Virus record (IMG/VR): IMGVR_UViG_3300024996_000021
Span: 1 to 39,823 of that record
DNA: 39,823 bases
Direction: 5' to 3' (one strand)
From: a virus
Taxonomy: Duplodnaviria; Caudoviricetes
Below the pieces are notes generated by a model, which searched no databases, was not told where the DNA came from, and was given only the letters and a program-made list of their open reading frames with translations. The first letter of the stretch is position 1; every line of letters begins with the position of its first letter. The translations under genes and the position numbers were made by a program. Positions 1-39,823 of this stretch are shown piece after piece.

Positions 1-136
1 CGAAAGGATACATGGTTCACGGCATAAAGAGGAGGTCTTCTCTTATCAATACCCACAGAATAGATCATCTTTATGTTGACCCGCATAACAATCATATAAA
101 TTTTAAACTTCATTACGGTGACCTGATAAGGGGGGT

Positions 137-1114: not shown

Positions 1115-1315
1115 GTGAATAGAAATAGTAAAAGTAGAAAAAAATATGACTCTGCAAAGGCTTTGGTCGTAAAACAATTAGCGAGTTCATTAAAAATATC
1201 TGAAAGTTATGTGCGTATGGCACTTAATGACACGGTTAAAAACGAGACCGCAGATACTATTCGGAAAGAGTTTAACCGGCTGTATAGAGAAATTTCAAAT
1301 CTTCTTAATAAATGA
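1115..1315 (+). CDS. Ner/Cro-like small HTH regulator
   Basis: 66 aa basic protein, HTH-like LASSLKISESYVRMAL, first gene of the early operon. Confidence 0.75.
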   Translation: MNRNSKSRKKYDSAKALVVKQLASSLKISESYVRMALNDTVKNETADTIRKEFNRLYREISNLLNK

Positions 1316-3309
1316 TTGTAGAATACCAAAACAGGCTGGCTGTTCCTGCAAATCTTCTTTATGATGATTTGGGGCTGGTGGCTTACGAAGATTATCAAAC
1401 ATTAGTGAGACGTCATAAAATAACAAGGTTGCGCGAAGGAAAGGGAAAAGGCAACCATGCATTGATAGCCCTTGATAGCCTTAAACCGGAATGGAGAACT
1501 AGGATAATTTCTATGTTCCCAAATCCACAAAAAATAGCGGAAACAAACGCATTCAGTGACTTTATCACCGAAGATACCGATGCGATTAAATTCTTTGAGG
1601 ATGTGCGCAAGATTCAGACGCGCATGACGGCTAACCACGTAACCAGGCACAGCAACGAAGCTGCCATCCTAAACGGATTCAAAAAGAAATATGAAGGCAT
1701 ATTGAAACACAGCAGTCGCGGAGCCTCTACGCGTGGGTTTTGGAAAAAAGCAGTAGGTGTATTGGACGGGCTACAACACAACTGGCCACACAAATTGCCC
1801 AAAACAGAAAAGCACCTGAAAGAGAAATACGAACGATATGTAGAGCATGGGTACCGGACGCTGCTGAAAGGATGGGACAACCAAAATAGCCGTGTGGTGA
1901 ATGCCGAAATTGAACAATTGCTTAACTCCATCTATTGCCAATACTTCAAACCAAACCATGTGCAGGTGTTGAAAGATTACCTGGAATTCCTTGCCGGCAA
2001 AAAGGACATTGTAAACAAAATCACCGGCGAACTATACGACCGCACAGCTTACGAGCCGGTGAGTGAAAGCACAGTTAGGAATTACCTCACCAAATGGGAG
2101 AACCAGGTGGTTACCCATAGCCGCCGGAGCAATAACCGGATTCAGTTTGGCGCCAAACATAGAGCATACGCTTCCTTAACGGTGGAACATTCAGGCGCCA
2201 TATTATCATTGGATGATAGAGACCTGCCCTGGAAGATGCACAATGGTAAGCGGCCAATTGCTTACATCGCTGCTGATGTGGCAAGTGAATGCTTTATCGG
2301 ATGGGCGTTTTCAAAACCGGCCCAGAGAGAAAATGACACGGTACATGGCAAGAATTTAAACCTCGTTTACAGGATGTTTCAAAACCTCTTTCAGCAGCTT
2401 GATTACTACGGCGTGAATATGCCTGCAGAGTGCGAAGTGGAAAACCACCTGATGAGCAGCCTGAAAGAAACTGCGCTCAAAGAAGGCAACCTATTCCGCT
2501 ATGTGCGCTTTGCGGCAGCAGAAAATCCACAGGAAAAGAAAATAGAAGGGATGTTCCGGCGGCTGCGCTACGACTTTGACAAGCTGCAAAACAACGGACT
2601 CGGATGGCTGCCCCGCCCACACGCGCGGGATGAGGCTAACCAGGCGCGCCTGGAAGATGCAGAGAAGCACACTTATGACTTTGAACAGATCTGCGCAATG
2701 GCAGTGGACAGCATGATGCAGTGGAATGCCGCCCCTCACCCGAACCAAAAGAAATATCCTGGCAAAAGCAGGCTGGAAGTATGGCAGGATAACCAGCACC
2801 CACAACTATTGCCGATAGAATGGCGCAATGTGGCGCGGTATGTTGGCAATAAGACGGAGACCTCTGTTAATCGCTATGAACTGCGCTGCAATAACCAACT
2901 ATGGAAGCTGCCCACTCCGGAACTGGCGAATAAAACCGGCAACAATGGCCGTGCACTGGATGCCTGGTGGATAGAGAATGCAGAGGGCGATGTAAACCGC
3001 ATTTATTTATACGAAAAAGACAGTGAAACATTCCTATGTGAGGCACTACCAAAGGAAATCGCACACAAGGCCCGCATCGAACAAACCGAACAGGATGGTA
3101 AAGTGCTGGGCCGCAACTATCGCTACAACAAAGGCATAGAGGAACACATCAGGGAAGGAAAGGAAGCACTGGCGCCGGTGGCTGTTATCAGTGCGGCTAA
3201 TGAACTTCCGGAAGACCACACCGTGGAGATTATAAAAGATGAACCCGACGAAATTGATTATTTCAAAATAGAAGGCAGTGAGCCGCGCTCTCTGCTTGAT
3301 GAATTATAA
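1312..3309 (+). CDS. MuA-like DDE transposase
   Basis: 665 aa; integrase-core motifs SLDDRD, IAADVASECFIGW, NPQEKKIE; directly upstream of an AAA ATPase. Confidence 0.92.
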   Translation: MIVEYQNRLAVPANLLYDDLGLVAYEDYQTLVRRHKITRLREGKGKGNHALIALDSLKPEWRTRIISMFPNPQKIAETNAFSDFITEDTDAIKFFEDVRKIQTRMTANHVTRHSNEAAILNGFKKKYEGILKHSSRGASTRGFWKKAVGVLDGLQHNWPHKLPKTEKHLKEKYERYVEHGYRTLLKGWDNQNSRVVNAEIEQLLNSIYCQYFKPNHVQVLKDYLEFLAGKKDIVNKITGELYDRTAYEPVSESTVRNYLTKWENQVVTHSRRSNNRIQFGAKHRAYASLTVEHSGAILSLDDRDLPWKMHNGKRPIAYIAADVASECFIGWAFSKPAQRENDTVHGKNLNLVYRMFQNLFQQLDYYGVNMPAECEVENHLMSSLKETALKEGNLFRYVRFAAAENPQEKKIEGMFRRLRYDFDKLQNNGLGWLPRPHARDEANQARLEDAEKHTYDFEQICAMAVDSMMQWNAAPHPNQKKYPGKSRLEVWQDNQHPQLLPIEWRNVARYVGNKTETSVNRYELRCNNQLWKLPTPELANKTGNNGRALDAWWIENAEGDVNRIYLYEKDSETFLCEALPKEIAHKARIEQTEQDGKVLGRNYRYNKGIEEHIREGKEALAPVAVISAANELPEDHTVEIIKDEPDEIDYFKIEGSEPRSLLDEL

Positions 3310-7634: not shown

Positions 7635-7642
7635 ATAAAAAA

Positions 7643-7742
7643 AAGATTAGCCACGAATGCACGAATAAAAAAGGAAGAAGATTAGCCACGAATGCACGAA
7701 TAAAAAAGGAAGAAGATTAACCACGAATGCACGAATAAAAAA
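7643..7742 (+). repeat. Tandem repeat, 35-bp unit x ~2.9
   Basis: CCACGAATGCACGAATAAAAAA starts at 7651, 7686 and 7721. Confidence 0.95.
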
Positions 7743-7750
7743 TTCAAATT

Positions 7751-8155
7751 ATGAATGCGGTTCAAAATAAGATAATGCATGCATTACTCAGCCAGACAGG
7801 TTTGATGAATCAAAAATCAAACCTGATCATTGGCGCGACTGGTGGGCGCTCGGAGAGCAGCAAGGATATGACGTTTGATGAGGCGCGGGACCTTATAACC
7901 TGGCTGCGAAGTTTGCCAAATCATGAGGCAGAAGGCGCAAATCGCATGAGGCGCAGCATCATCAGCATGGCGCATGAAATGGGCTGGCACACGCTGATAG
8001 AAGGTCATTGGGTAGCCGACCTGACGCGCATTAATGCATGGATGTTAAAAAGCAGTTACCTGCATAAGAGGCTCAATGCATATAAATATAAAGAGCTGCC
8101 GAAGCTGATTACGCAATTTGAATTTGTATATAAATCATTTTTAAAAAAGATTTAA
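7751..8155 (+). CDS. GemA/DUF1018-like phage protein
   Basis: GRSESSKDMTFDEARDLI, LNAYKYKELPKLITQF; typical position in the Mu-like early region. Confidence 0.6.
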   Translation: MNAVQNKIMHALLSQTGLMNQKSNLIIGATGGRSESSKDMTFDEARDLITWLRSLPNHEAEGANRMRRSIISMAHEMGWHTLIEGHWVADLTRINAWMLKSSYLHKRLNAYKYKELPKLITQFEFVYKSFLKKI

Positions 8156-8157
8156 AA

Positions 8158-8185
8158 GTGAAGAAGAAAATTTACATAGCAGGAA
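8158..8185 (+). pseudogene. Gene start (VKKKIYIAG) interrupted by the cassette array
   Basis: GTG 2 nt after the previous stop; resembles the DUF4406-like N-terminus KIYIAG; runs directly into attC-like site 1. Confidence 0.45.
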
Positions 8186-8319
8186 CGTTCTGCCCGCTTG
8201 GCGAAGGCGGGGAAATAGAATTACAAAAGTTGAATAAAAGTACAAATGAAGAATAGAATTACAAATGCCGATTTACTTCCGTCAGCCCCGCTTGCGCCAA
8301 ACGGCTTGTTATCTCCTGC
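8179..8319. repeat. attC-like site 1
   Basis: GCAGGAAC..GCCCGCTTGGCGAAGGCGGGG / CCCCGCTTGCGCCAAACGGCTTGTTATCTCCTGC. Confidence 0.65.
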
Positions 8320-9007
8320 CGGTCGGGTTTTGGTGGCTTGTGAATATAGTGGCATTGTGCGCAAAGCATTTTCATTAAAAGGGTGGGACGCCTGGAGTGT
8401 TGATATTCTAAATACCGATATGCCAACAGAATTTTGTCTTGATGAAAATGGTAACGGTTGGGGCAATCATATACAAGGCTCAGCTTTGGATGTTTTAAAT
8501 GATAGATGGGACTTGCTCATTGCTTTTCCGCCCTGCACCTATCTAACTTATGCTGGGATGCGTAATTGGTATGATGAAGGTCGGGCAGAGAAAAGAATAA
8601 AAGCTGCTGATTTTTTTATGAAAATGTATAACGCACCTGTGCCACTTGTTTGTGTTGAAAATCCGCAGGGAATAATGTCAAAAATTTTCCGTGAACCTGA
8701 TATGGTAATTCATCCTTACTATTTTGGTGAAAGAGAAATGAAGCGCACCTGCCTTTGGTTGCGTGGATTGCCAAAGCTGGAATATCATTTAGAAGATAAT
8801 TTATTTAATGTCAAAACCGCAACGGATAAACCGCAGCCAAAAAGAGTTGAGTTATGCAAGAAAACTGGACGAATGAAAAACAGATATTTTACCGATACAA
8901 TCGTAAACGGAAAATTAAAATCAGGGTTAGAAAAGTCTAAGACATTTCAGTCGGTAGCAAATGCGATGGCTGAACAGTGGACGGCTTTTGTCTTAGGTAG
9001 CCGATAA
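8246..9007 (+). CDS. Phage-type DNA (cytosine-5) methyltransferase
   Basis: VLVACEYSG (SAM-binding region), catalytic FPPC, VENP. Confidence 0.8.
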   Translation: MKNRITNADLLPSAPLAPNGLLSPAGRVLVACEYSGIVRKAFSLKGWDAWSVDILNTDMPTEFCLDENGNGWGNHIQGSALDVLNDRWDLLIAFPPCTYLTYAGMRNWYDEGRAEKRIKAADFFMKMYNAPVPLVCVENPQGIMSKIFREPDMVIHPYYFGEREMKRTCLWLRGLPKLEYHLEDNLFNVKTATDKPQPKRVELCKKTGRMKNRYFTDTIVNGKLKSGLEKSKTFQSVANAMAEQWTAFVLGSR

Positions 9008-9199
9008 CGTCCAAGGGCTTTGTGCAGGTGTGGCATTTTTATCCCGTCAGCCCGCACGTTAGCCGATAAAAAGAAATAAAAGATGAAAATACAACAAAAG
9101 ATGAATAGCGAACTTTTAGCCGGAACCGATGCTGATAGTGATTCTAAAGATGAAATCCAGCACGTCAGCCACACTTGCACAAAACCAAATGTTATCGGC
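9000..9199. repeat. attC-like site 2
   Basis: GCCGATAAC..TTTGTGCAGGTGTGGC / GCCACACTTGCACAAA..GTTATCGGC. Confidence 0.75.
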
Positions 9200-9430
9200 G
9201 GTTTTGTCGTGGGTGAACGTGTTGTCTGGGATAGTCATTTTGGTTACGAAATTGGTTATTTTCTTGGCGAAGGTGTGGTGTTCAATTCTTACATGATTGA
9301 TGTTTGTACAGGCGTAATAACAGGTGAATGCTCATATTCTAAAAATGAAATTCATAAGTACTCTGATGAATTAATTGATTATTTAAATAAAAAATACGGA
9401 TATGAAAAACGATTTAGTAACACATTTTAA
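9083..9430 (+). CDS. Hypothetical cassette protein
   Basis: ORF starts inside the loop of site 2. Confidence 0.7.
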   Translation: MKIQQKMNSELLAGTDADSDSKDEIQHVSHTCTKPNVIGGFVVGERVVWDSHFGYEIGYFLGEGVVFNSYMIDVCTGVITGECSYSKNEIHKYSDELIDYLNKKYGYEKRFSNTF

Positions 9431-9659
9431 AACATTAGAGTTTACCGACGAAAGAAAGAATACTCTTGGTAAATATGTTCACATTGTTGATGTAGAAGGA
9501 CTGCATTTTTACGGCAGCGATTTGCCTCAATTAATGCCTATGACTTGTACTATGAAAGATTTAAAATCATTTTATCTAAGCCTTGATTTTACGGGAATTG
9601 AATTAACTGAAAAGTGTCTTGTTAACGTTGCTAAATTAGAGAGCGTTAATCGCCGCTAA
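9402..9659 (+). CDS. Hypothetical cassette protein
   Basis: Stop TAA lies within GCTAAC of site 3. Confidence 0.65.
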   Translation: MKNDLVTHFKTLEFTDERKNTLGKYVHIVDVEGLHFYGSDLPQLMPMTCTMKDLKSFYLSLDFTGIELTEKCLVNVAKLESVNRR

Positions 9660-9729
9660 CGGTTCGGGCTTGGCGCAGTTGTGTTTCGGCTTGTGCGTTG
9701 GGAAAATTGCGCCAAACCAGTGTTAGCGG
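9653..9729. repeat. attC-like site 3
   Basis: CCGCTAAC..TTGGCGCAGTT / AATTGCGCCAA..GTTAGCGG. Confidence 0.75.
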
Positions 9730-9761
9730 TTCGTGCCGGATTATTAAAATGGAAATTGAAT

Positions 9762-10055
9762 ATGAAACTAAAAGCAAAATACAAATGGAATAACGAGAAA
9801 GTCCTGGTTAAGCCTGTTTTTTTCTCATGGAACGTTGGTTTGCAATACAAAACACTAACTGGATATAGCGCAGCTTCAATATTCTGCAATAAAGAAAGTG
9901 AGTATGTATTTCCGTTGCAAACCAAAATCGTTTTATTCTTTGTCAAAATATGGTATTGGATGCGGTTTTGGTTATGGATGCAAATAAGATACTGGCAACC
10001 GAACAGAATAAAACGATTACTTAAAAAACAAAGCGATGATGACCTTCCATTTTAA
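9762..10055 (+). CDS. Hypothetical cassette protein, Trp-rich, DDDLPF C-terminus
   Basis: ORF 9681-10055; ATG at 9762 preferred. Confidence 0.6.
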   Translation: MKLKAKYKWNNEKVLVKPVFFSWNVGLQYKTLTGYSAASIFCNKESEYVFPLQTKIVLFFVKIWYWMRFWLWMQIRYWQPNRIKRLLKKQSDDDLPF

Positions 10056-10171
10056 CTGCTCGAAATTTTCGATTAGTTGGAGGTCGGTAGGCATGACCGC
10101 TAACGTTTGTATTGACGCTATTGTCAAATGCTTACAAACGAATACAAACGAATCAATCAATCAATTTAAAA

Positions 10172-10450
10172 ATGAAAATTTCAAACTTACAAAATTGGTT
10201 CCTCTCGCACACGAAAGGACTGCTCAGACAGGACAGGCTGATGCACTTTACAGCAGGTTTCTTTCTGTTTATTCTTTTATCACTAATTGCAAAACCAGCC
10301 CTGGCAATTGCATTTGTGTTGCTTATTGCAATATCTAAAGAGTTAGTTTATGACAAAATAATCAGACGGGGAAATGTTGAATTAATTGATATTCTATATA
10401 CAATTATTCCGTCAATCATCATTATTTTAGCTAATCAAATTGCACAATAA
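10172..10450 (+). CDS. Small multi-TM membrane protein
   Basis: DRLMHFTAGF...KELVYD with hydrophobic helices; ATG at 10172. Confidence 0.7.
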   Translation: MKISNLQNWFLSHTKGLLRQDRLMHFTAGFFLFILLSLIAKPALAIAFVLLIAISKELVYDKIIRRGNVELIDILYTIIPSIIIILANQIAQ

Positions 10451-34600: not shown

Positions 34601-34658
34601 TACCCTCGTGAAGATGGCTACTGATACATGGTTATTGTTTGGAGATATATCAAATTAA
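31638..34658 (+). CDS. Tail-fibre-like protein with Sec signal peptide
   Basis: MKHILTAILILLAYCSKA|Q; fibre motifs KPTTLSGYGITDA, HKTGDETIAGTKTF, SVFGRSGNVVA. Confidence 0.8.
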   Translation: MKHILTAILILLAYCSKAQVGNVDQFRIKTKLTLGDRSVTKLYNDSTFAAADSLSLPTSWAVKGFVANKLSQMTIATGKTYVVSSQSEMLALSANVGDVAVRTDSSASFILQVTPASTLSNWVLLLFPNNVPSVFGRSGNVVAQDGDYDHTQISGVDSLFALKQNNIINLGDTVLYLKKRDSSIFATVYQNNMKANNSDVVHKTGDETIAGTKTFADSLKVPTRTQADSSANAANTAWIKAQSYMKSIGKLPSGSIPFSDANGILTWDAAGLLWDGSNLRAGHDDFYSTTGLGLNGNRAYIGGSGFGMVVKTTGGRPMDGSKSIIFYNSDTEYGRFSMRTAYDSMLRFTSRMEIIPGTTNKFDIGSSSLQWNNIYAKQFYLNGTLLSPVSNEQINLWTNKQDQLNGTGFVKANGSTITYDNSTYATQLALNDTASALRAIAGSGGDMFKSVYDPTNISGDAFNYNNLYNTPNLTLKLNISDTSTMLSKYLRKVDTTGKWLSASYTPSWGNITGKPTTLSGYGITDAVNTTGTQTVAGTKTFSASMIYFNNIHGLNRVSLGNGTFESFSLFSDPTNSIFGIGANAYHDPTTNTYIVPIKFAYGGHGATIEASPTTGIRAMSVDSNGVATRLISVDTSGTLNLPKLKSGVSGQDFLRIDVNNDVFRNTQSEVITHLGISAKMNYTDTSAMLSPLWNKINSQTTDTVTANTPLHIVLNQSTNKQTLYVDTASATKDGALLKEDWSTFNGKQNQILLTTNGTSGAATLTGSTLNIPQYSGGTGGVTNLALGTATTTTQLITNSNGTGFTLTAATTLKAGLLSSDTQTIAGNKIFNGSVTLKSAADDGAALDKILQVDPTGIIKSNTFSDFQYKIGVNDRPKFTDSVTAIQTGTMTPTMLASLNGKQDKLIAITNQSNNYTLALSDANGMLREGSSAATTVTVPTNATVAYPIGTQINIMQASTAQVTIAGAAGVTINSADGKKKTRVQFSTVTLVKMATDTWLLFGDISN

Positions 34659-34710
34659 AAAGATAGTGAAGATAGTTTTTTCCATAAGGTGCAGTTTTAC
34701 GGTGATAGGA

Positions 34711-36549
34711 ATGATACGGAGGGCATTTCTATGCCTTCCTATTTTTTTTCTCTTTGGAATTGGAGTTGCAGATGGACAAATGATTCCGGGTGTGGTGGCA
34801 AGTTCAATACACGGAGTGCCTGACACGTCAATACTGACACTGAATTATGGAGGCACTTATAAAAGTGAACTATCGCTCAAATTCAACAAAGCCACCACAC
34901 TGACACTGAATGGTGGTACATGGGTAAGCACAGGAACAGCAACACGAACTTACACGGCTAATGTATTGGCTAAAGATTCAATCATTTACACGAATACTGT
35001 TTCGTTACAGATACCGTCTTTAGATGTTACAGAGATTGATGATAATATTAATAATCTTGATACGTCCTATCTTGATGTTAGCAGGTTGGTTAATTTGACT
35101 AAAATTCAATTCACATCAAGTAAAACAAAGATTTTAGGAAGTGTAGCCGGACTTACTTCACTGACGTTTCTGAGTGTGCAGGGCAGTAACACCCTAACAG
35201 GCTCAGTAGCTGGACTTACTTCACTGACGGCTCTGAGTGTGTGGGGCAGTAACACCCTCACCGGATCGGTGGCTGGACTTACTTCACTGACGAATCTGAG
35301 TGTGCAGGGCAGTAACACCCTAACAGGCTCAGTAGCTGGACTTACTTCACTGACGGCTCTGAGTGTGTGGGGCAACAACACCGTCACCGGATCGGTGGCC
35401 GGACTTACTTCACTGACGTATATGGGTGTGGGGGGCAGTAACACCCTAACAGGCTCAGTAGCTGGGCTTACTTCACTGACGAATCTGCTTGTGACGGGCA
35501 ACAACACCGTCACAATTGATTCAGTTGTGCAGATGAAAGGTCTTAGCTATCTGCAAACAAATTACCCCGTTAATGTGAATCAAATCCTTGCCGATTTTGT
35601 GGTTAATAAAGATCAACCTAAACCCAGAATAGACAGAAGCATATTACTTTCCGGCAACGCTGCCAACTATGCGACAGGTCAGGGGTTGACGGATGCAGCA
35701 TTTTTGAGGACATATAAGTCACCTAACAATACAGGCCCCGCAGTGTGGACAGTAACACTTGCACCGACACCGGTTGATACAAATGCAACAGCATTCAAAA
35801 CAGCGACCGGAATAACAGGTAGTGATGCAAATAACATTGATTCTTTAATTAAGATGCTAAAGGATTCATCCCTCTGGTCTTACGCTCAGGTGATTTACCC
35901 CCTCACGGGTGGAACATCGGCGAGCATGGCATATAACCTGAAAGATACATCCACATTTAAAATAGCATGGACAGGTACGGGAACATACTCTACATCTGGC
36001 TATACCTCTGGCAATGTTTCCAATTATGGTAACACAGGATGGATTCCGTCTGTTCAGGTAACTTCAAATCATCTTAGCTCAATGGGTGTTTATTCAAGGA
36101 CGGATTTTACAGGTACCTACGTTGACATAGGAGCACTATCAAATAATGGAGTAGATAACTACTTTCAGATTTATTCGAAGATGGGAACAACATCTTATAT
36201 GAATATGAATACCACCGGAGTCGGTCAATCGCAAACAAATTCATCTTCATCCAGAGGTTGGTTCTTTGCGAGCAGGAGCGAGAAAATAACATCCAATCAG
36301 GATACTTATACACAGATTGATGGCACTCAAATTCAGTCTGGAACATATACCTCTGGTAACGATGGAATAGTAACACTTCCTGTTTATCTGGGAACTCAGA
36401 ATAACAAAGGAACATCATCGTTTGCAAGTCCACGACAACTATCATTTGTGTGGCTTTCTAACCAACCACTCACAAGAGCACAGGGAGCAACGCTTTATCG
36501 TATTGTTCAAAAATATATGACACTCAGAGGAATTCAGGTAACAAATTAA
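34711..36549 (+). CDS. Signal-peptide protein with LRR block and C-terminal lectin/LamG-like domain (receptor-binding candidate)
   Basis: Hydrophobic leader ending ADG|Q; six 21-aa LRRs; start uncertain (34639-34711). Confidence 0.75.
   Translation: MIRRAFLCLPIFFLFGIGVADGQMIPGVVASSIHGVPDTSILTLNYGGTYKSELSLKFNKATTLTLNGGTWVSTGTATRTYTANVLAKDSIIYTNTVSLQIPSLDVTEIDDNINNLDTSYLDVSRLVNLTKIQFTSSKTKILGSVAGLTSLTFLSVQGSNTLTGSVAGLTSLTALSVWGSNTLTGSVAGLTSLTNLSVQGSNTLTGSVAGLTSLTALSVWGNNTVTGSVAGLTSLTYMGVGGSNTLTGSVAGLTSLTNLLVTGNNTVTIDSVVQMKGLSYLQTNYPVNVNQILADFVVNKDQPKPRIDRSILLSGNAANYATGQGLTDAAFLRTYKSPNNTGPAVWTVTLAPTPVDTNATAFKTATGITGSDANNIDSLIKMLKDSSLWSYAQVIYPLTGGTSASMAYNLKDTSTFKIAWTGTGTYSTSGYTSGNVSNYGNTGWIPSVQVTSNHLSSMGVYSRTDFTGTYVDIGALSNNGVDNYFQIYSKMGTTSYMNMNTTGVGQSQTNSSSSRGWFFASRSEKITSNQDTYTQIDGTQIQSGTYTSGNDGIVTLPVYLGTQNNKGTSSFASPRQLSFVWLSNQPLTRAQGATLYRIVQKYMTLRGIQVTN
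34718..34739. other. Hairpin with TTCT loop (copy 3)
   Basis: GGAGGGCAT-TTCT-ATGCCTTCC then TATTTTTTTTC. Confidence 0.55.
35137..35514 (+). repeat. Six tandem 63-bp coding repeats (GSVAGLTSLTxLxVxGxNTLT)
   Basis: Units start at 35137, 35200, 35263, 35326, 35389 and 35452. Confidence 0.95.
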
Positions 36550-36551
36550 AA

Positions 36552-39341
36552 ATGAAAAAACTCATCATAACATCCCTTTTCTTTGTAGCGACTACATTAT
36601 CTCTACAGGCGCAGACTGTCGGGAAGGCGGTAAAGGTTCCGACATTCAGTTCTTACGGAGAACCGATGTGGCTTCAACTTCCACAAGGATACACAACATC
36701 TATAAAGTATCCACTCCTTATATTTATTCATGGGGTTGGCGAGGCAAGCCCACACGCATGGAACGATCCTATCTATATGAACGGCGATGACCTTTATAAG
36801 ATTTATACGTCCACGACAGCGGGTGGTCCCTCTTATTTCCGTGAGCAAGGATGGAATGGGAAAGCGTATAATCCAGTTACGTTAGATTCTACGTCATTCA
36901 TTATTATTTCTCCACAGGCAACCGGCTCTGGATGGTTTAAAGCGACGGATATAAAATACTTCCTCAAATACATGGCTGCAAATTATTCGGTTGATACAAA
37001 CAGGATTTACTTTACAGGGCTATCCGCTGGTGGTAGTGCAGAAGTTGGTTATTTGATAGGCACTCACGATGTAACGAAAGCAGATAAACCATACCTTCCG
37101 GCAGCATGGGTTCCTATGAGTGAAGCCTATGGTACTTCATATCAATGGATGGCAGACAGCATCATGCACGATAGCATTCCTGCATGGGGCTTTGGAGATG
37201 CCTCTGGTGCCGATGTACATGGGAAAAACACAAAGGATTTGATGGATGAAATGAATAACGATGTTGCAGGCTATACAAGGTTCACTCAGTACTCTGGTGG
37301 TCATTGTTGCTGGGCTAACTTTTACATTCCGTCATATACAAGTACGATCTGGGGAGGTAATGCCATGAGCATTTATTCCTGGATGCTCACAAAATCACGA
37401 ACTCCACAGGCTCCAACGCCACAGCCACCGACAGTTAATGCAGGAACAGATCAAACACTTTCAGCGAGTGCTACTTCTACAAGTTTAACAGCCACTGCAA
37501 CACCATATTCAGGTACGACAATAACGGGCTATTCCTGGACACAGGTTTCGGGTTCGTCTGCAACAATAGTTTCTTCAACATCAGCAACAACAAGCATAAC
37601 AGGACTTACAACCGGAGTGTATGTTTTCAGGATGACAGTAACCCAATCAGATTCTAAAACTGCATTTGACGATGTACAGGTGACTATTCCTTCATCACCG
37701 GCACCAACTGTTAATGCAGGTACAGACCAGAATATAACACTAACGGCCACAACGGTGACAGGAACAGCAACGGCAGGAAGTGGAGCCACAATCACTTCTA
37801 CTTTGTGGACGCAAATTTCTGGTACAGCAGCTACAATAACTTCTCCGAGTAATCTATCTACAACAATAACAAACTTATCAAATGGTACTAACGTCTTTAG
37901 GCTTACTGCTACTCAAAGTGATGGTCAATCTACCTCAGATGATATTCAGGTTATCGTTAACGCTGATACTGGTAGTTGTGGCTGCACCTATACTCTTGAT
38001 CCAGCTACTCCTGACAGTGCAACCTACTGGAAATCTAAAGCCGCAACCGTCGCTCCAGGATCGGTTATCTGCCTCAAAGCGGGAAGGTTTAACCACCTCA
38101 ACTTTGACGGATTAAAGGGTACAAGGGAGAATCCTATTATCATAAAAAATTGCGGTGGGCTTGTGACAATATCTTCCGGCTTTACCTATATGTTTCGTGT
38201 GGTTAATTCCTCATGGGTAACGGTGGATGGAAGCGGTGATCCTAACGTATTTTATGGTATTCAAACGAAGGCATGGAACGGAACACTTACGAAGGCTCCA
38301 TTTAGCTTTAATGGTCATCTGACAGGAATTAAGATAAATAATGTTTGGGGTGATTCTACAACTGCATGGGGACTACAGATTAAGACAACCCCTTCGGATT
38401 TTGATTCCCTAACTTGGGCACCATACGGAACGATTCATGATGTAGTCGTAAGAGATACTAAGATGACGAATACAGGCAGTGAAGGATATTACATTGGTCA
38501 GACAGACGACAACAATCCTGTGAAGACCGTAACAACTGCCGGAGATACTATTACGATAAATGTTGATGGGGTGCAAATAGACACTCTCAACTTCTACAAC
38601 AATATCGCAATGAATACTCAATGGGATGGGATGCAGATTTCAGCAGCTAAATCTTTTGTGGTACATGATAATTTCATCAAAAACTATGGTATTGAGAATA
38701 CTTCTTCCCAGATGGACGGTTTCGTTTTGGGTGGTAAGTCTTATGGTGTTTTCTACCGTAACATCATTGATTCGGGGAACTCAACAGGAATACATCTGAT
38801 GGGTTATAACAATGGAGTACCTCCTACTTTGATTTACAATAACCTCGTTATCAATTCAGGATGGGATGGAATTAATGTTGATGACAGACCGAATGTAAAT
38901 AAGTACCTCAATCAGAAATATTATATTCTTAATAATACGATTGTCCATCCGGCAAGATATGGAGCTATCTTTGATAATTCAGGAGGAACGGTCGCACCAG
39001 GAAACAAATTCAATAATAACATCATCGCAGGGGCGGTAAATACACCAGTCGTGTTCGGATCATCAATATTACCTTCTTACGTTGATACGACAAACAATGC
39101 CATCTTCTCAACAGTAGCAGCGGCAAACTTTGTTGGTGGCGGTGATTATCATTTACAATCTTCATCTCAGGCATTCAACAAAACAGGATATAATCAGAGT
39201 GCAATATTTTTAGACGATTTAGATAAGAATTCAAGAAATGGTGCGTATGGAGTTGGAGCTTACAGGACGTTTATCCCATCGATTGTTCCTGTGATTATCA
39301 GGCAGTTCTTAATTTTAAAAGGTAAAATGATTTTTAAGTGA
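36552..39341 (+). CDS. Secreted multidomain protein: alpha/beta hydrolase + 2 PKD/Ig-like + right-handed beta-helix
   Basis: Signal peptide ending LQA|Q; LIFIHGVGE and GLSAGG; two PTVNAGTDQ...WTQ..G repeats; NN/DG-rich beta-helix. Confidence 0.85.
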   Translation: MKKLIITSLFFVATTLSLQAQTVGKAVKVPTFSSYGEPMWLQLPQGYTTSIKYPLLIFIHGVGEASPHAWNDPIYMNGDDLYKIYTSTTAGGPSYFREQGWNGKAYNPVTLDSTSFIIISPQATGSGWFKATDIKYFLKYMAANYSVDTNRIYFTGLSAGGSAEVGYLIGTHDVTKADKPYLPAAWVPMSEAYGTSYQWMADSIMHDSIPAWGFGDASGADVHGKNTKDLMDEMNNDVAGYTRFTQYSGGHCCWANFYIPSYTSTIWGGNAMSIYSWMLTKSRTPQAPTPQPPTVNAGTDQTLSASATSTSLTATATPYSGTTITGYSWTQVSGSSATIVSSTSATTSITGLTTGVYVFRMTVTQSDSKTAFDDVQVTIPSSPAPTVNAGTDQNITLTATTVTGTATAGSGATITSTLWTQISGTAATITSPSNLSTTITNLSNGTNVFRLTATQSDGQSTSDDIQVIVNADTGSCGCTYTLDPATPDSATYWKSKAATVAPGSVICLKAGRFNHLNFDGLKGTRENPIIIKNCGGLVTISSGFTYMFRVVNSSWVTVDGSGDPNVFYGIQTKAWNGTLTKAPFSFNGHLTGIKINNVWGDSTTAWGLQIKTTPSDFDSLTWAPYGTIHDVVVRDTKMTNTGSEGYYIGQTDDNNPVKTVTTAGDTITINVDGVQIDTLNFYNNIAMNTQWDGMQISAAKSFVVHDNFIKNYGIENTSSQMDGFVLGGKSYGVFYRNIIDSGNSTGIHLMGYNNGVPPTLIYNNLVINSGWDGINVDDRPNVNKYLNQKYYILNNTIVHPARYGAIFDNSGGTVAPGNKFNNNIIAGAVNTPVVFGSSILPSYVDTTNNAIFSTVAAANFVGGGDYHLQSSSQAFNKTGYNQSAIFLDDLDKNSRNGAYGVGAYRTFIPSIVPVIIRQFLILKGKMIFK

Positions 39342-39696: not shown

Positions 39697-39823
39697 CGCG
39701 GATAGATTTCAGGCATCTTGGCAAAGTGGATGCCCCATTCTTAACAGGTATGATAACGGAAAGGGACATTTAGCTATTTCAAAAAAGAGTTATTGGAATT
39801 TGAAGTAATCGATGAATTTAGTT

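Follow-up and report, generated by a model that had tools for sequence, protein, structure and literature searches.

The window analysed here, the whole 39,823 nucleotides (nt) of the IMG/VR virus record IMGVR_UViG_3300024996_000021 (Duplodnaviria; Caudoviricetes), is a near-complete Mu-like transposable phage with MuA/MuB-type genes and a Mu head module; besides the MuA-type transposase, its Mu-like marks include an AAA ATPase, a DUF3164 protein, Mu portal, F and gp36 proteins, and a protease. Among the early genes on its + strand lies an array of three cassettes resembling those of integrons, each composed of an attC-like hairpin (h1, h2 or h3, bounded by AAC and GTT cores) followed by one or two open reading frames (ORFs), and the array ends in a lone AAC half site (Table 1). 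It is very probable that this array is a site-specific cassette system in mirror-image form, in which the genes run antisense to the polarity of the recombination sites.

Table 1. Features of the cassette array and of its surroundings (positions in the window; a slash within a core marks the crossover point)
Feature	Position	Strand	Remarks
h1, attC-like hairpin	8184..8310	-	AAC 8184-8186, GTT 8308-8310; spacers 7/3 on +
h2, long attC-like hairpin	9006..9193	-	AAC 9006-9008, GTT 9191-9193; spacers 7/4 on +
h3, short attC-like hairpin	9658..9724	-	AAC 9658-9660, GTT 9722-9724; spacers 6-7/3-4 on +
Candidate attI-like site, lone AAC 10102-10104	10102..10127	-	AAC-N6-ATTGACGC on +; G/TT on minus strand at 10104/10103
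Cassette 1, h1 + methyltransferase-like gene	8186..9007	+	822 bp, AA/C to AA/C, inferred boundaries; R-box match 7/10
Gene 1, DNA methyltransferase-like	8246..9007	+	PHROG 757, E 1e-48, residues 26-249
Cassette 2, h2 + ORF 9083-9430 + ORF 9402-9659	9008..9659	+	652 bp
Gene 2, small phage protein	9083..9430	+	in-frame reading through GTT core
Second ORF of cassette 2	9402..9659	+	85 aa, singleton cluster, stop in TAAC core
Cassette 3, h3 + gene 3	9660..10103	+	444 bp
Gene 3, 97-aa protein	9762..10055	+	ORF translation
32-codon ORF across h1 core	8158..8256	+	open reading frame
Small hydrophobic ORF	10172..10450	+	70 nt behind half site, in the slot of the recombinase in complete phage platforms
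MuA-type transposase	1312..3309	+	PHROG 310

The three hairpins, which an initial annotation had described from the letters of the sequence, were all recovered, as was the lone AAC of the half site. A core-anchored arm-pairing score, computed with our own detector on AAC sites, placed them (h2, 20.8; h1, 20.1; h3, 14.6) above all other sites among the 775 on the + strand, the next scoring 13.1. The region 8001-10300 has three sites scoring at least 14; in 200 second-order Markov simulations of it, 197 produced no such site and 3 produced one, and none reached 20. The hairpin signal lies in these core-anchored arms rather than in plain folding energy, which was not significant against shuffled sequences (z scores of -0.61, -1.02, -1.77 and -0.35) and is not used as support. 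Minimum free energy folding, which had been proposed as a check for extrahelical bases, gave mismatches in the sites and no classical L-box bulges; the asymmetry of the sites consists in a spacer of 6-7 versus 3-4 nt. No match was obtained in an Rfam scan of the window. Each site is an imperfect inverted repeat of the form R''(AAC)...R'(GTT), and the two ends of each cassette are complementary beyond the core, as claimed initially: the cognate pairs match at 7/10, 8/10 and 6/10 positions and the nine cross pairs at 1-6/10, cassette 3 tying with one cross pair. Also as claimed, the ORFs at 8246-9007 and 9402-9659 both end on the TAA of TAAC cores, at 9005 and 9657. With three attC-like sites in 1.6 kb and no integrase, the array is a cluster of attC sites that has no integron-integrase (CALIN; at least two same-strand sites within 4 kb), a call based on our own detector and on a host-derived model that matches two of the three sites, rather than on IntegronFinder.

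The loop of h1 contains the ATG of gene 1 and that of h2 the ATG of gene 2, and the first 25 or so residues of the gene 1 product are encoded by the hairpin. The methyltransferase and similar cargo are likely to serve counter-defence. Pfam, NCBIfam and the Atlas gave nothing firm on the functions of genes 2 and 3, the Atlas yielding just a below-threshold SH3/chromo-like lead for gene 2, and the ORF at 9402-9659 may not be a gene.

Copies of the cassettes in other samples bear on the extent of the mobile unit. Among 21 sequencing runs listed for this DNA, four (X1-X4) are its possible source and were not counted, and 16 contain 12-18% of the stretch; four of the 16 (X5, X7, X11 and X18), from four other studies, were compared. 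Cassette 2 (9008-9659) recurs in three of them with 0-1 mismatch (1 mismatch over 9005-9664 in X5 and X7; segments 9005-9513 and 9510-9662 in X11), and cassette 3 recurs in X18 (9664-10105, 1 mismatch). Identity exceeds 99% for both cassettes, the flanking phage genes not being covered in these runs, and all seven ends with unlike DNA beyond them lie at most 5 nt from an AA/C. Behind 9664 in X7 and 10105 in X18 another hairpin-arm-like sequence begins, in X18 instead of the half site. Because these near-identical copies end at AAC cores, they support the proposal of the initial annotation that the mobile unit is a hairpin with its downstream gene and that crossover occurs at AA/C. A canonical gene-then-hairpin unit on the + strand is ruled out, the shared segments being 9005-9664 and 9664-10105 and not 9192-9722.

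Gene bodies have also been joined to other hairpins. In four of five relatives of gene 3 (86-89% amino acid identity) the alignment begins at 9721, at the GTT core, and the hairpin is a different one; one of these four hairpins is a hybrid, and the hybrid hairpin of locus L142 has unmatched arms. Low-level top-strand recombination, which is known for some attC sites (PMC5027507), would explain this exchange if it took place at the GTT core, and homologous exchange may add to it. Of 23 loci with relatives of gene 2, 13 have a hairpin upstream, 8 have none and 2 lie at an edge. The 72 non-duplicate loci with methyltransferase relatives comprise 63 without an upstream hairpin, 8 at an edge and one with a hairpin, in a count by the detector, which overlooked L028, recognisable by eye as a cassette.

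The window is contig C35 of a co-binned genome, G000, which is probably of the Bacteroidota because its array-linked recombinase, on contig C50, is in the same 90% cluster as a protein from Agriterribacter humi, whose family we take to be the Chitinophagaceae. Hairpins h1 and h2 belong to the attC-like family of this genome: they match repeats on contigs C42, C50, C94, C38, C11, C105 and C100, and a hidden Markov model (HMM) whose training set was 17 sites, all from the host, has minus-strand matches to h2 (E 4.5e-21), which of the three stands nearest the host family, and to h1 (E 7e-5), but none to h3. The arrays of G000 have the gene-then-hairpin order. Among 58 host HMM matches, the ORF on the 5' side is on the same strand in 41, antisense in 7 and absent in 10; seven of the 58 are opposite-strand shadows of stronger matches, including four of those counted as antisense. 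The unpaired spacers next to the cores, read along the genes, are mostly 4/6 (short-left) in host arrays and 7/3, 7/4 and 6/3 (long-left) in the phage. About 50 attC-like sites lie in host arrays on C42, C50, C54, C94, C105, C11 and C38, and some of the cassettes appear to be gene-less; one array holds what we take to be an IS110-like gene and another, presumably, an IS91-like element.

The phage genes are antisense to attC polarity, so that none precedes an attC of its own in the same orientation. On the minus strand the array has the canonical order (G/TT, body, AAC, hairpin, G/TT), with antisense ORFs. The reversed order noted initially therefore holds for the unit, hairpin plus gene, but the reversal lies in the genes and not in the recombination chemistry. 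The h2 pattern led to 58 viral loci; in the 44 that are non-duplicate, 73 cassette ORFs have the phage-type strand and 1 the opposite one. The upstream ends in these 44 loci comprise 21 full hairpins, 16 edges and 7 ambiguous cases, and the downstream ends 26 half sites (including four that look like missed hairpins, which were kept in the counts), 10 edges, 7 seeds not called and one unpaired end. Locus L146, which is 100% identical over the region and was taken as the window's own contig, was left out of the counts.

By its motif, the half site is attI-like and a candidate entry site, placed at the head of the array in attC polarity, and it includes the palindrome TTGAC-N6-GTCAA (10112-10127). 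Of thirty recombinase loci of the host family that were considered, 14 have a hairpin in range (12 in host-type polarity, 2 in the opposite one), 11 lack one, and the remaining 5 are too short. The matrix built from 10 recombinase-adjacent cores confirmed by R-box match, one of them from G000 itself, ranks 10102 first of the 1382 AAC sites on both strands (9.0 bits), and 0.1% of 14,710 background sites score as high. When a matrix was made from 26 other phage array ends, 10102 likewise ranked first, and 12 of the 26 viral array ends score within the host matrix's top 5%. The half-site palindrome matches motifs behind two host recombinase genes (L119 and L123) at 16/22 and 15/22 nt. In the first 200 nt past the recombinase stop of host loci L105-L128, a recurring palindrome of the ATTG-N-CAAT type lies upstream of the attI-like core; this motif, which resembles the half-site palindrome, is possibly an accessory binding site. 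The half site was also considered as a fourth, decayed attC, but its local palindrome is weak and its hairpin score only 7.9, and the attI-like reading fits better.

No tyrosine recombinase was found on the phage contig, as the initial annotation had stated: none of the 14 PF00589 matches of G000 falls there, TIGR02249 has no match, no IntI gene lies beside the array, and the window contains no recombinase remnant (best tblastn E 0.49). Loading in trans is therefore needed. On C50 of G000, a recombinase of 396 aa is followed by an attI-like site and gene-hairpin cassettes, and enzymes of this type are present in 59 of 151 family genomes. An additional domain, the insertion, defines IntI; the C50 enzyme has 30 aa where VchIntIA (2A3V) has 70, so that some 40 residues of the insertion are missing, and its TIGR02249 score (181.5 bits) is below the cut-off of 265. 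Judged by sequence, it is Xer-like and not a true IntI. The recombinase of C94, which adjoins an ORF presumably resembling an IS91-type transposase, was not treated as a cassette enzyme.

Viral contigs were scanned with the single C50 enzyme sequence, which found nothing, and with an alignment, which left 80 loci, 70 of them non-duplicate and 23 with at least two hairpins. Nine viral loci have an Xer-like recombinase of 266-289 aa located 26-90 nt behind the array half site on the strand of the genes, and the best match of all nine in G000 is the C50 enzyme (31-40% identity). Complete mirror platforms with their own recombinase thus exist in other phages. The same mirror layout occurs in viral locus L427 (1860-4924) beside a true IntI (TIGR02249 466 bits); there the attI-like site precedes the integrase by about 80 nt and the cassette genes share the strand of the integrase. 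This locus supports the view that such arrays work like an integron. L427, L403, L404, L411, L416 and L419 are GC-rich viral contigs whose integrases have the IntI insertion, L427 and L404 exceeding the TIGR02249 cut-off. The initial suggestion that a host IntI-like enzyme loads the cassettes in trans, and that intI be sought in the host, was therefore borne out in part: the phage has no recombinase and G000 has an array-linked one, but the latter is short of the IntI insertion and the cut-off, and the host is only one option for its source because short phage-encoded relatives exist.

The array, mobile in the recent past, works like an integron without being a classical member of the family, as it has no integrase in cis, a candidate enzyme that is not IntI, and antisense genes. 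We consider it on balance probable that this integrase-less mirror-image array is moved by an Xer/IntI-like recombinase acting in trans, most likely the array-linked enzyme of a Bacteroidota host. IntI cuts the bottom strand in its AAC (PMC5027507), and by analogy the + strand of the phage, which is the long-spacer ('bottom') strand and the coding strand, would fold and be cut at AA/C, the cassette would be excised as a circle, and the circle would integrate at the double-stranded site at 10102. Because the half site would be the entry, new cassettes would be placed last in the operon, where early-operon read-through would express them, two of the present cassettes presumably using the start codons within their hairpin loops. 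Rarer crossover at the GTT core, on the other strand, would give rise to related gene bodies with different hairpins.

Several points weigh against movement by a host enzyme, or against parts of the evidence for it. No near-identical copy of cassette 1 was found elsewhere, neither an empty site nor an excised circle was seen, and the contigs with cassettes 2 and 3 are short (0.2-1.3 kb), their parent elements not being visible; in X18 the left end falls within h3 by 4-5 nt and the hairpin starts slightly differently, so that this junction is not base-exact. The matrix made from nine phage-recombinase-adjacent sites ranks 10102 only sixth of 1382. In a forward scan with the exact attI motif, a cassette lay upstream of only 1 of 72 sites, compared with 0 of 1270 controls, and the matches are mostly due to chance. 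The chain walker did not connect cassette 3 with 10102, which was chosen from the initial annotation and the R-box match, and the detector miscalls polarity where two GTT stand close, in addition to the doubtful viral half sites mentioned above. One phage with its own enzyme (L200/L389) has h2-type hairpins. Qi et al. (2023; PMC9892861) found that IntI1 failed to recombine P12002L_attC1, which is a hairpin of the present type. The link between phage and host is weak, coming from binning alone: the flanks of the window have no exact match in other contigs of G000 (best 68%), and the phage may have been binned with a non-host.

In an alternative reading, the mirror cassettes and attI-like site are unchanged but the enzyme is that of a phage, either a short Xer-like recombinase from a co-infecting phage or this phage's own, its gene having since been lost from the slot behind 10102. 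The nine viral loci with a recombinase directly behind the half site agree with this rather unlikely alternative, as does the start of the next ORF of the window 70 nt behind its half site. That ORF is unrelated, however, and the slot retains no remnant; the palindrome of the half site resembles motifs behind host recombinase genes, and a temperate phage resides with the host enzyme. The ranking of 10102, first with the host matrix and sixth with the nine-site phage matrix, favours the host enzyme only modestly.

A further reading, quite improbable, is that this Mu-like genome took over the complete block from another phage, through ordinary or illegitimate recombination, and that the block is inert there today, its cassettes having moved only in other phages. 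None of 13 Mu-like regions of the same family has an array (two have single borderline calls; the coverage of early regions is unverified), and the left end seems to cut a gene, of which the ORF at 8158-8256 may be the stump. DUF4406 was considered as the interrupted gene on account of a motif and rejected, as PF14359 has no match in G000. An empty allele was not found among the related Mu-like phages, which are distant; the gene order of L010, one of them, differs. Cassettes 2 and 3, however, are within 1 mismatch of copies with other neighbours, so that their assembly is recent; every core and arm, and the attI-like site too, looks intact; and a second Mu-like prophage (L009, from a Cyclobacteriaceae metagenome-assembled genome) has its own, different mirror array of other hairpin types (9120-10220). 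The arrays are accessory in Mu-like phages. Hardly credible is the idea that the hairpins are shared expression modules (start codon, RNA structure) and hot spots of homologous recombination without any site-specific enzyme, for although two genes start in hairpin loops and the hybrid hairpin of L142 suggests homologous exchange inside hairpins, the junctions cluster at the 3-nt core and not across the hairpin, both ends of each unit are mutually complementary, and the arrays end in a recombinase-type site, complete versions adjoining recombinases.

The array shares with classical integrons its AAC/GTT cores, imperfect hairpins, self-complementary cassette ends, duplex entry site and stop codons in the core, and differs from them in its antisense genes, in the lack of an integrase in cis, in predicted proximal stems where no extrahelical bases show, and in candidate enzymes without the IntI insertion of about 40 aa. 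Phage CALINs that include this type of array are already in print: Qi et al. (PMC9892861) list 17, among them that of Polaribacter phage P12002L, which like the window has integrase-less attC-like sites in a Bacteroidota phage with methyltransferase cargo, and whose 'attC sites with divergent directions' they attribute to mosaicism. The portions of their text that were available describe neither the polarity of a mirror layout nor an attI-like entry site at its end, and the phage of the window differs in being Mu-like and transposable. Our own scan of P12002L (L441, 28.4-41 kb) found long-left hairpins ahead of genes in 8 of 9 calls and two mirror arrays ending in one identical half site, of whose terminal end the published attC2 is the reverse complement. 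It appears that attC2, which IntI1 recombined, is the terminal half site and not a hairpin, and that attC1, which failed, was written in the direction of the genes.

The rAID-1 systems (recombinase-associated acquired interbacterial defence) of Bacteroidales (10.1101/471110) resemble the C50 array of G000 in having an XerD-like recombinase upstream of co-directional genes with integron-like repeats between them, a likeness of layout that concerns G000 and not the phage. They are defined by a 5' XerD-like recombinase more than 44% identical to BF9343_RS08045 followed by co-directional genes of low GC content, and are reported from gut Bacteroidales chromosomes with immunity cargo, with no phage or antisense form in the available parts of that text. 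Single attC sites lacking integron-integrases (SALINs) and insertion at genomic GWT sites (10.1101/2022.09.11.507474) are similar in that cassettes are placed in trans, away from the integrase; the window differs in its three cassettes and in a terminal site with an extended attI-like motif, not only GWT. No description of antisense or mirror cassette arrays in phages was found in full-text searches of the literature, although subscription papers and bioRxiv supplements could hold one.

According to published surveys, integrons are nearly absent from Bacteroidetes (PMC9024848) and CALINs are scarce in phages (PMC9892861). The present data suggest that an integron-like exchange system is common in Bacteroidota and their phages. 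Standard tools may largely miss it because its enzyme is not IntI and its sites are atypical, and phages would use its mirror form to stock the early operon with accessory genes, such as methyltransferases. The window and its bin together offer mobile units that are short and near-identical, a putative entry site and a putative enzyme, so that the mechanism is directly testable. We suggest, tentatively, that phages of Bacteroidota, including temperate Mu-like ones, have a client version of the host system, with an attI-like site, antisense cassettes and a borrowed recombinase, in which polarity would act like a firewall: neither phage cassettes within host arrays nor host defence cassettes within the phage would be expressed. 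The window also bears on the open question of cassette formation. The methyltransferase family is mostly free-standing (63/72) and gene 3 bodies carry different hairpins, which suggests that ordinary phage genes could become cassettes when a hairpin is joined to them at the GTT core, a testable route for the origin of new cassettes if the client version exists.

None of the isolated phages matches the array region, a scan for promoters and terminators gave no enrichment, and no RNA datasets are among the runs listed with this DNA. The left flank of the window (1-125) is 68% identical to contig C13 of G000 and looks like what we take to be a fragment of a GDP-mannose dehydratase gene, and the right flank (about 39700-39823) looks unrelated; differing flanks are as expected of Mu-like DNA whose two host-derived ends stem from separate sites. 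At 7640-7744, in the intergenic gap ahead of the ORF at 7751, lie three 35-nt repeats in tandem (89-100% identical), which are possibly protein-binding sites. Tail-region genes at 34639-39341 encode leucine-rich repeats and PKD/beta-helix domains.

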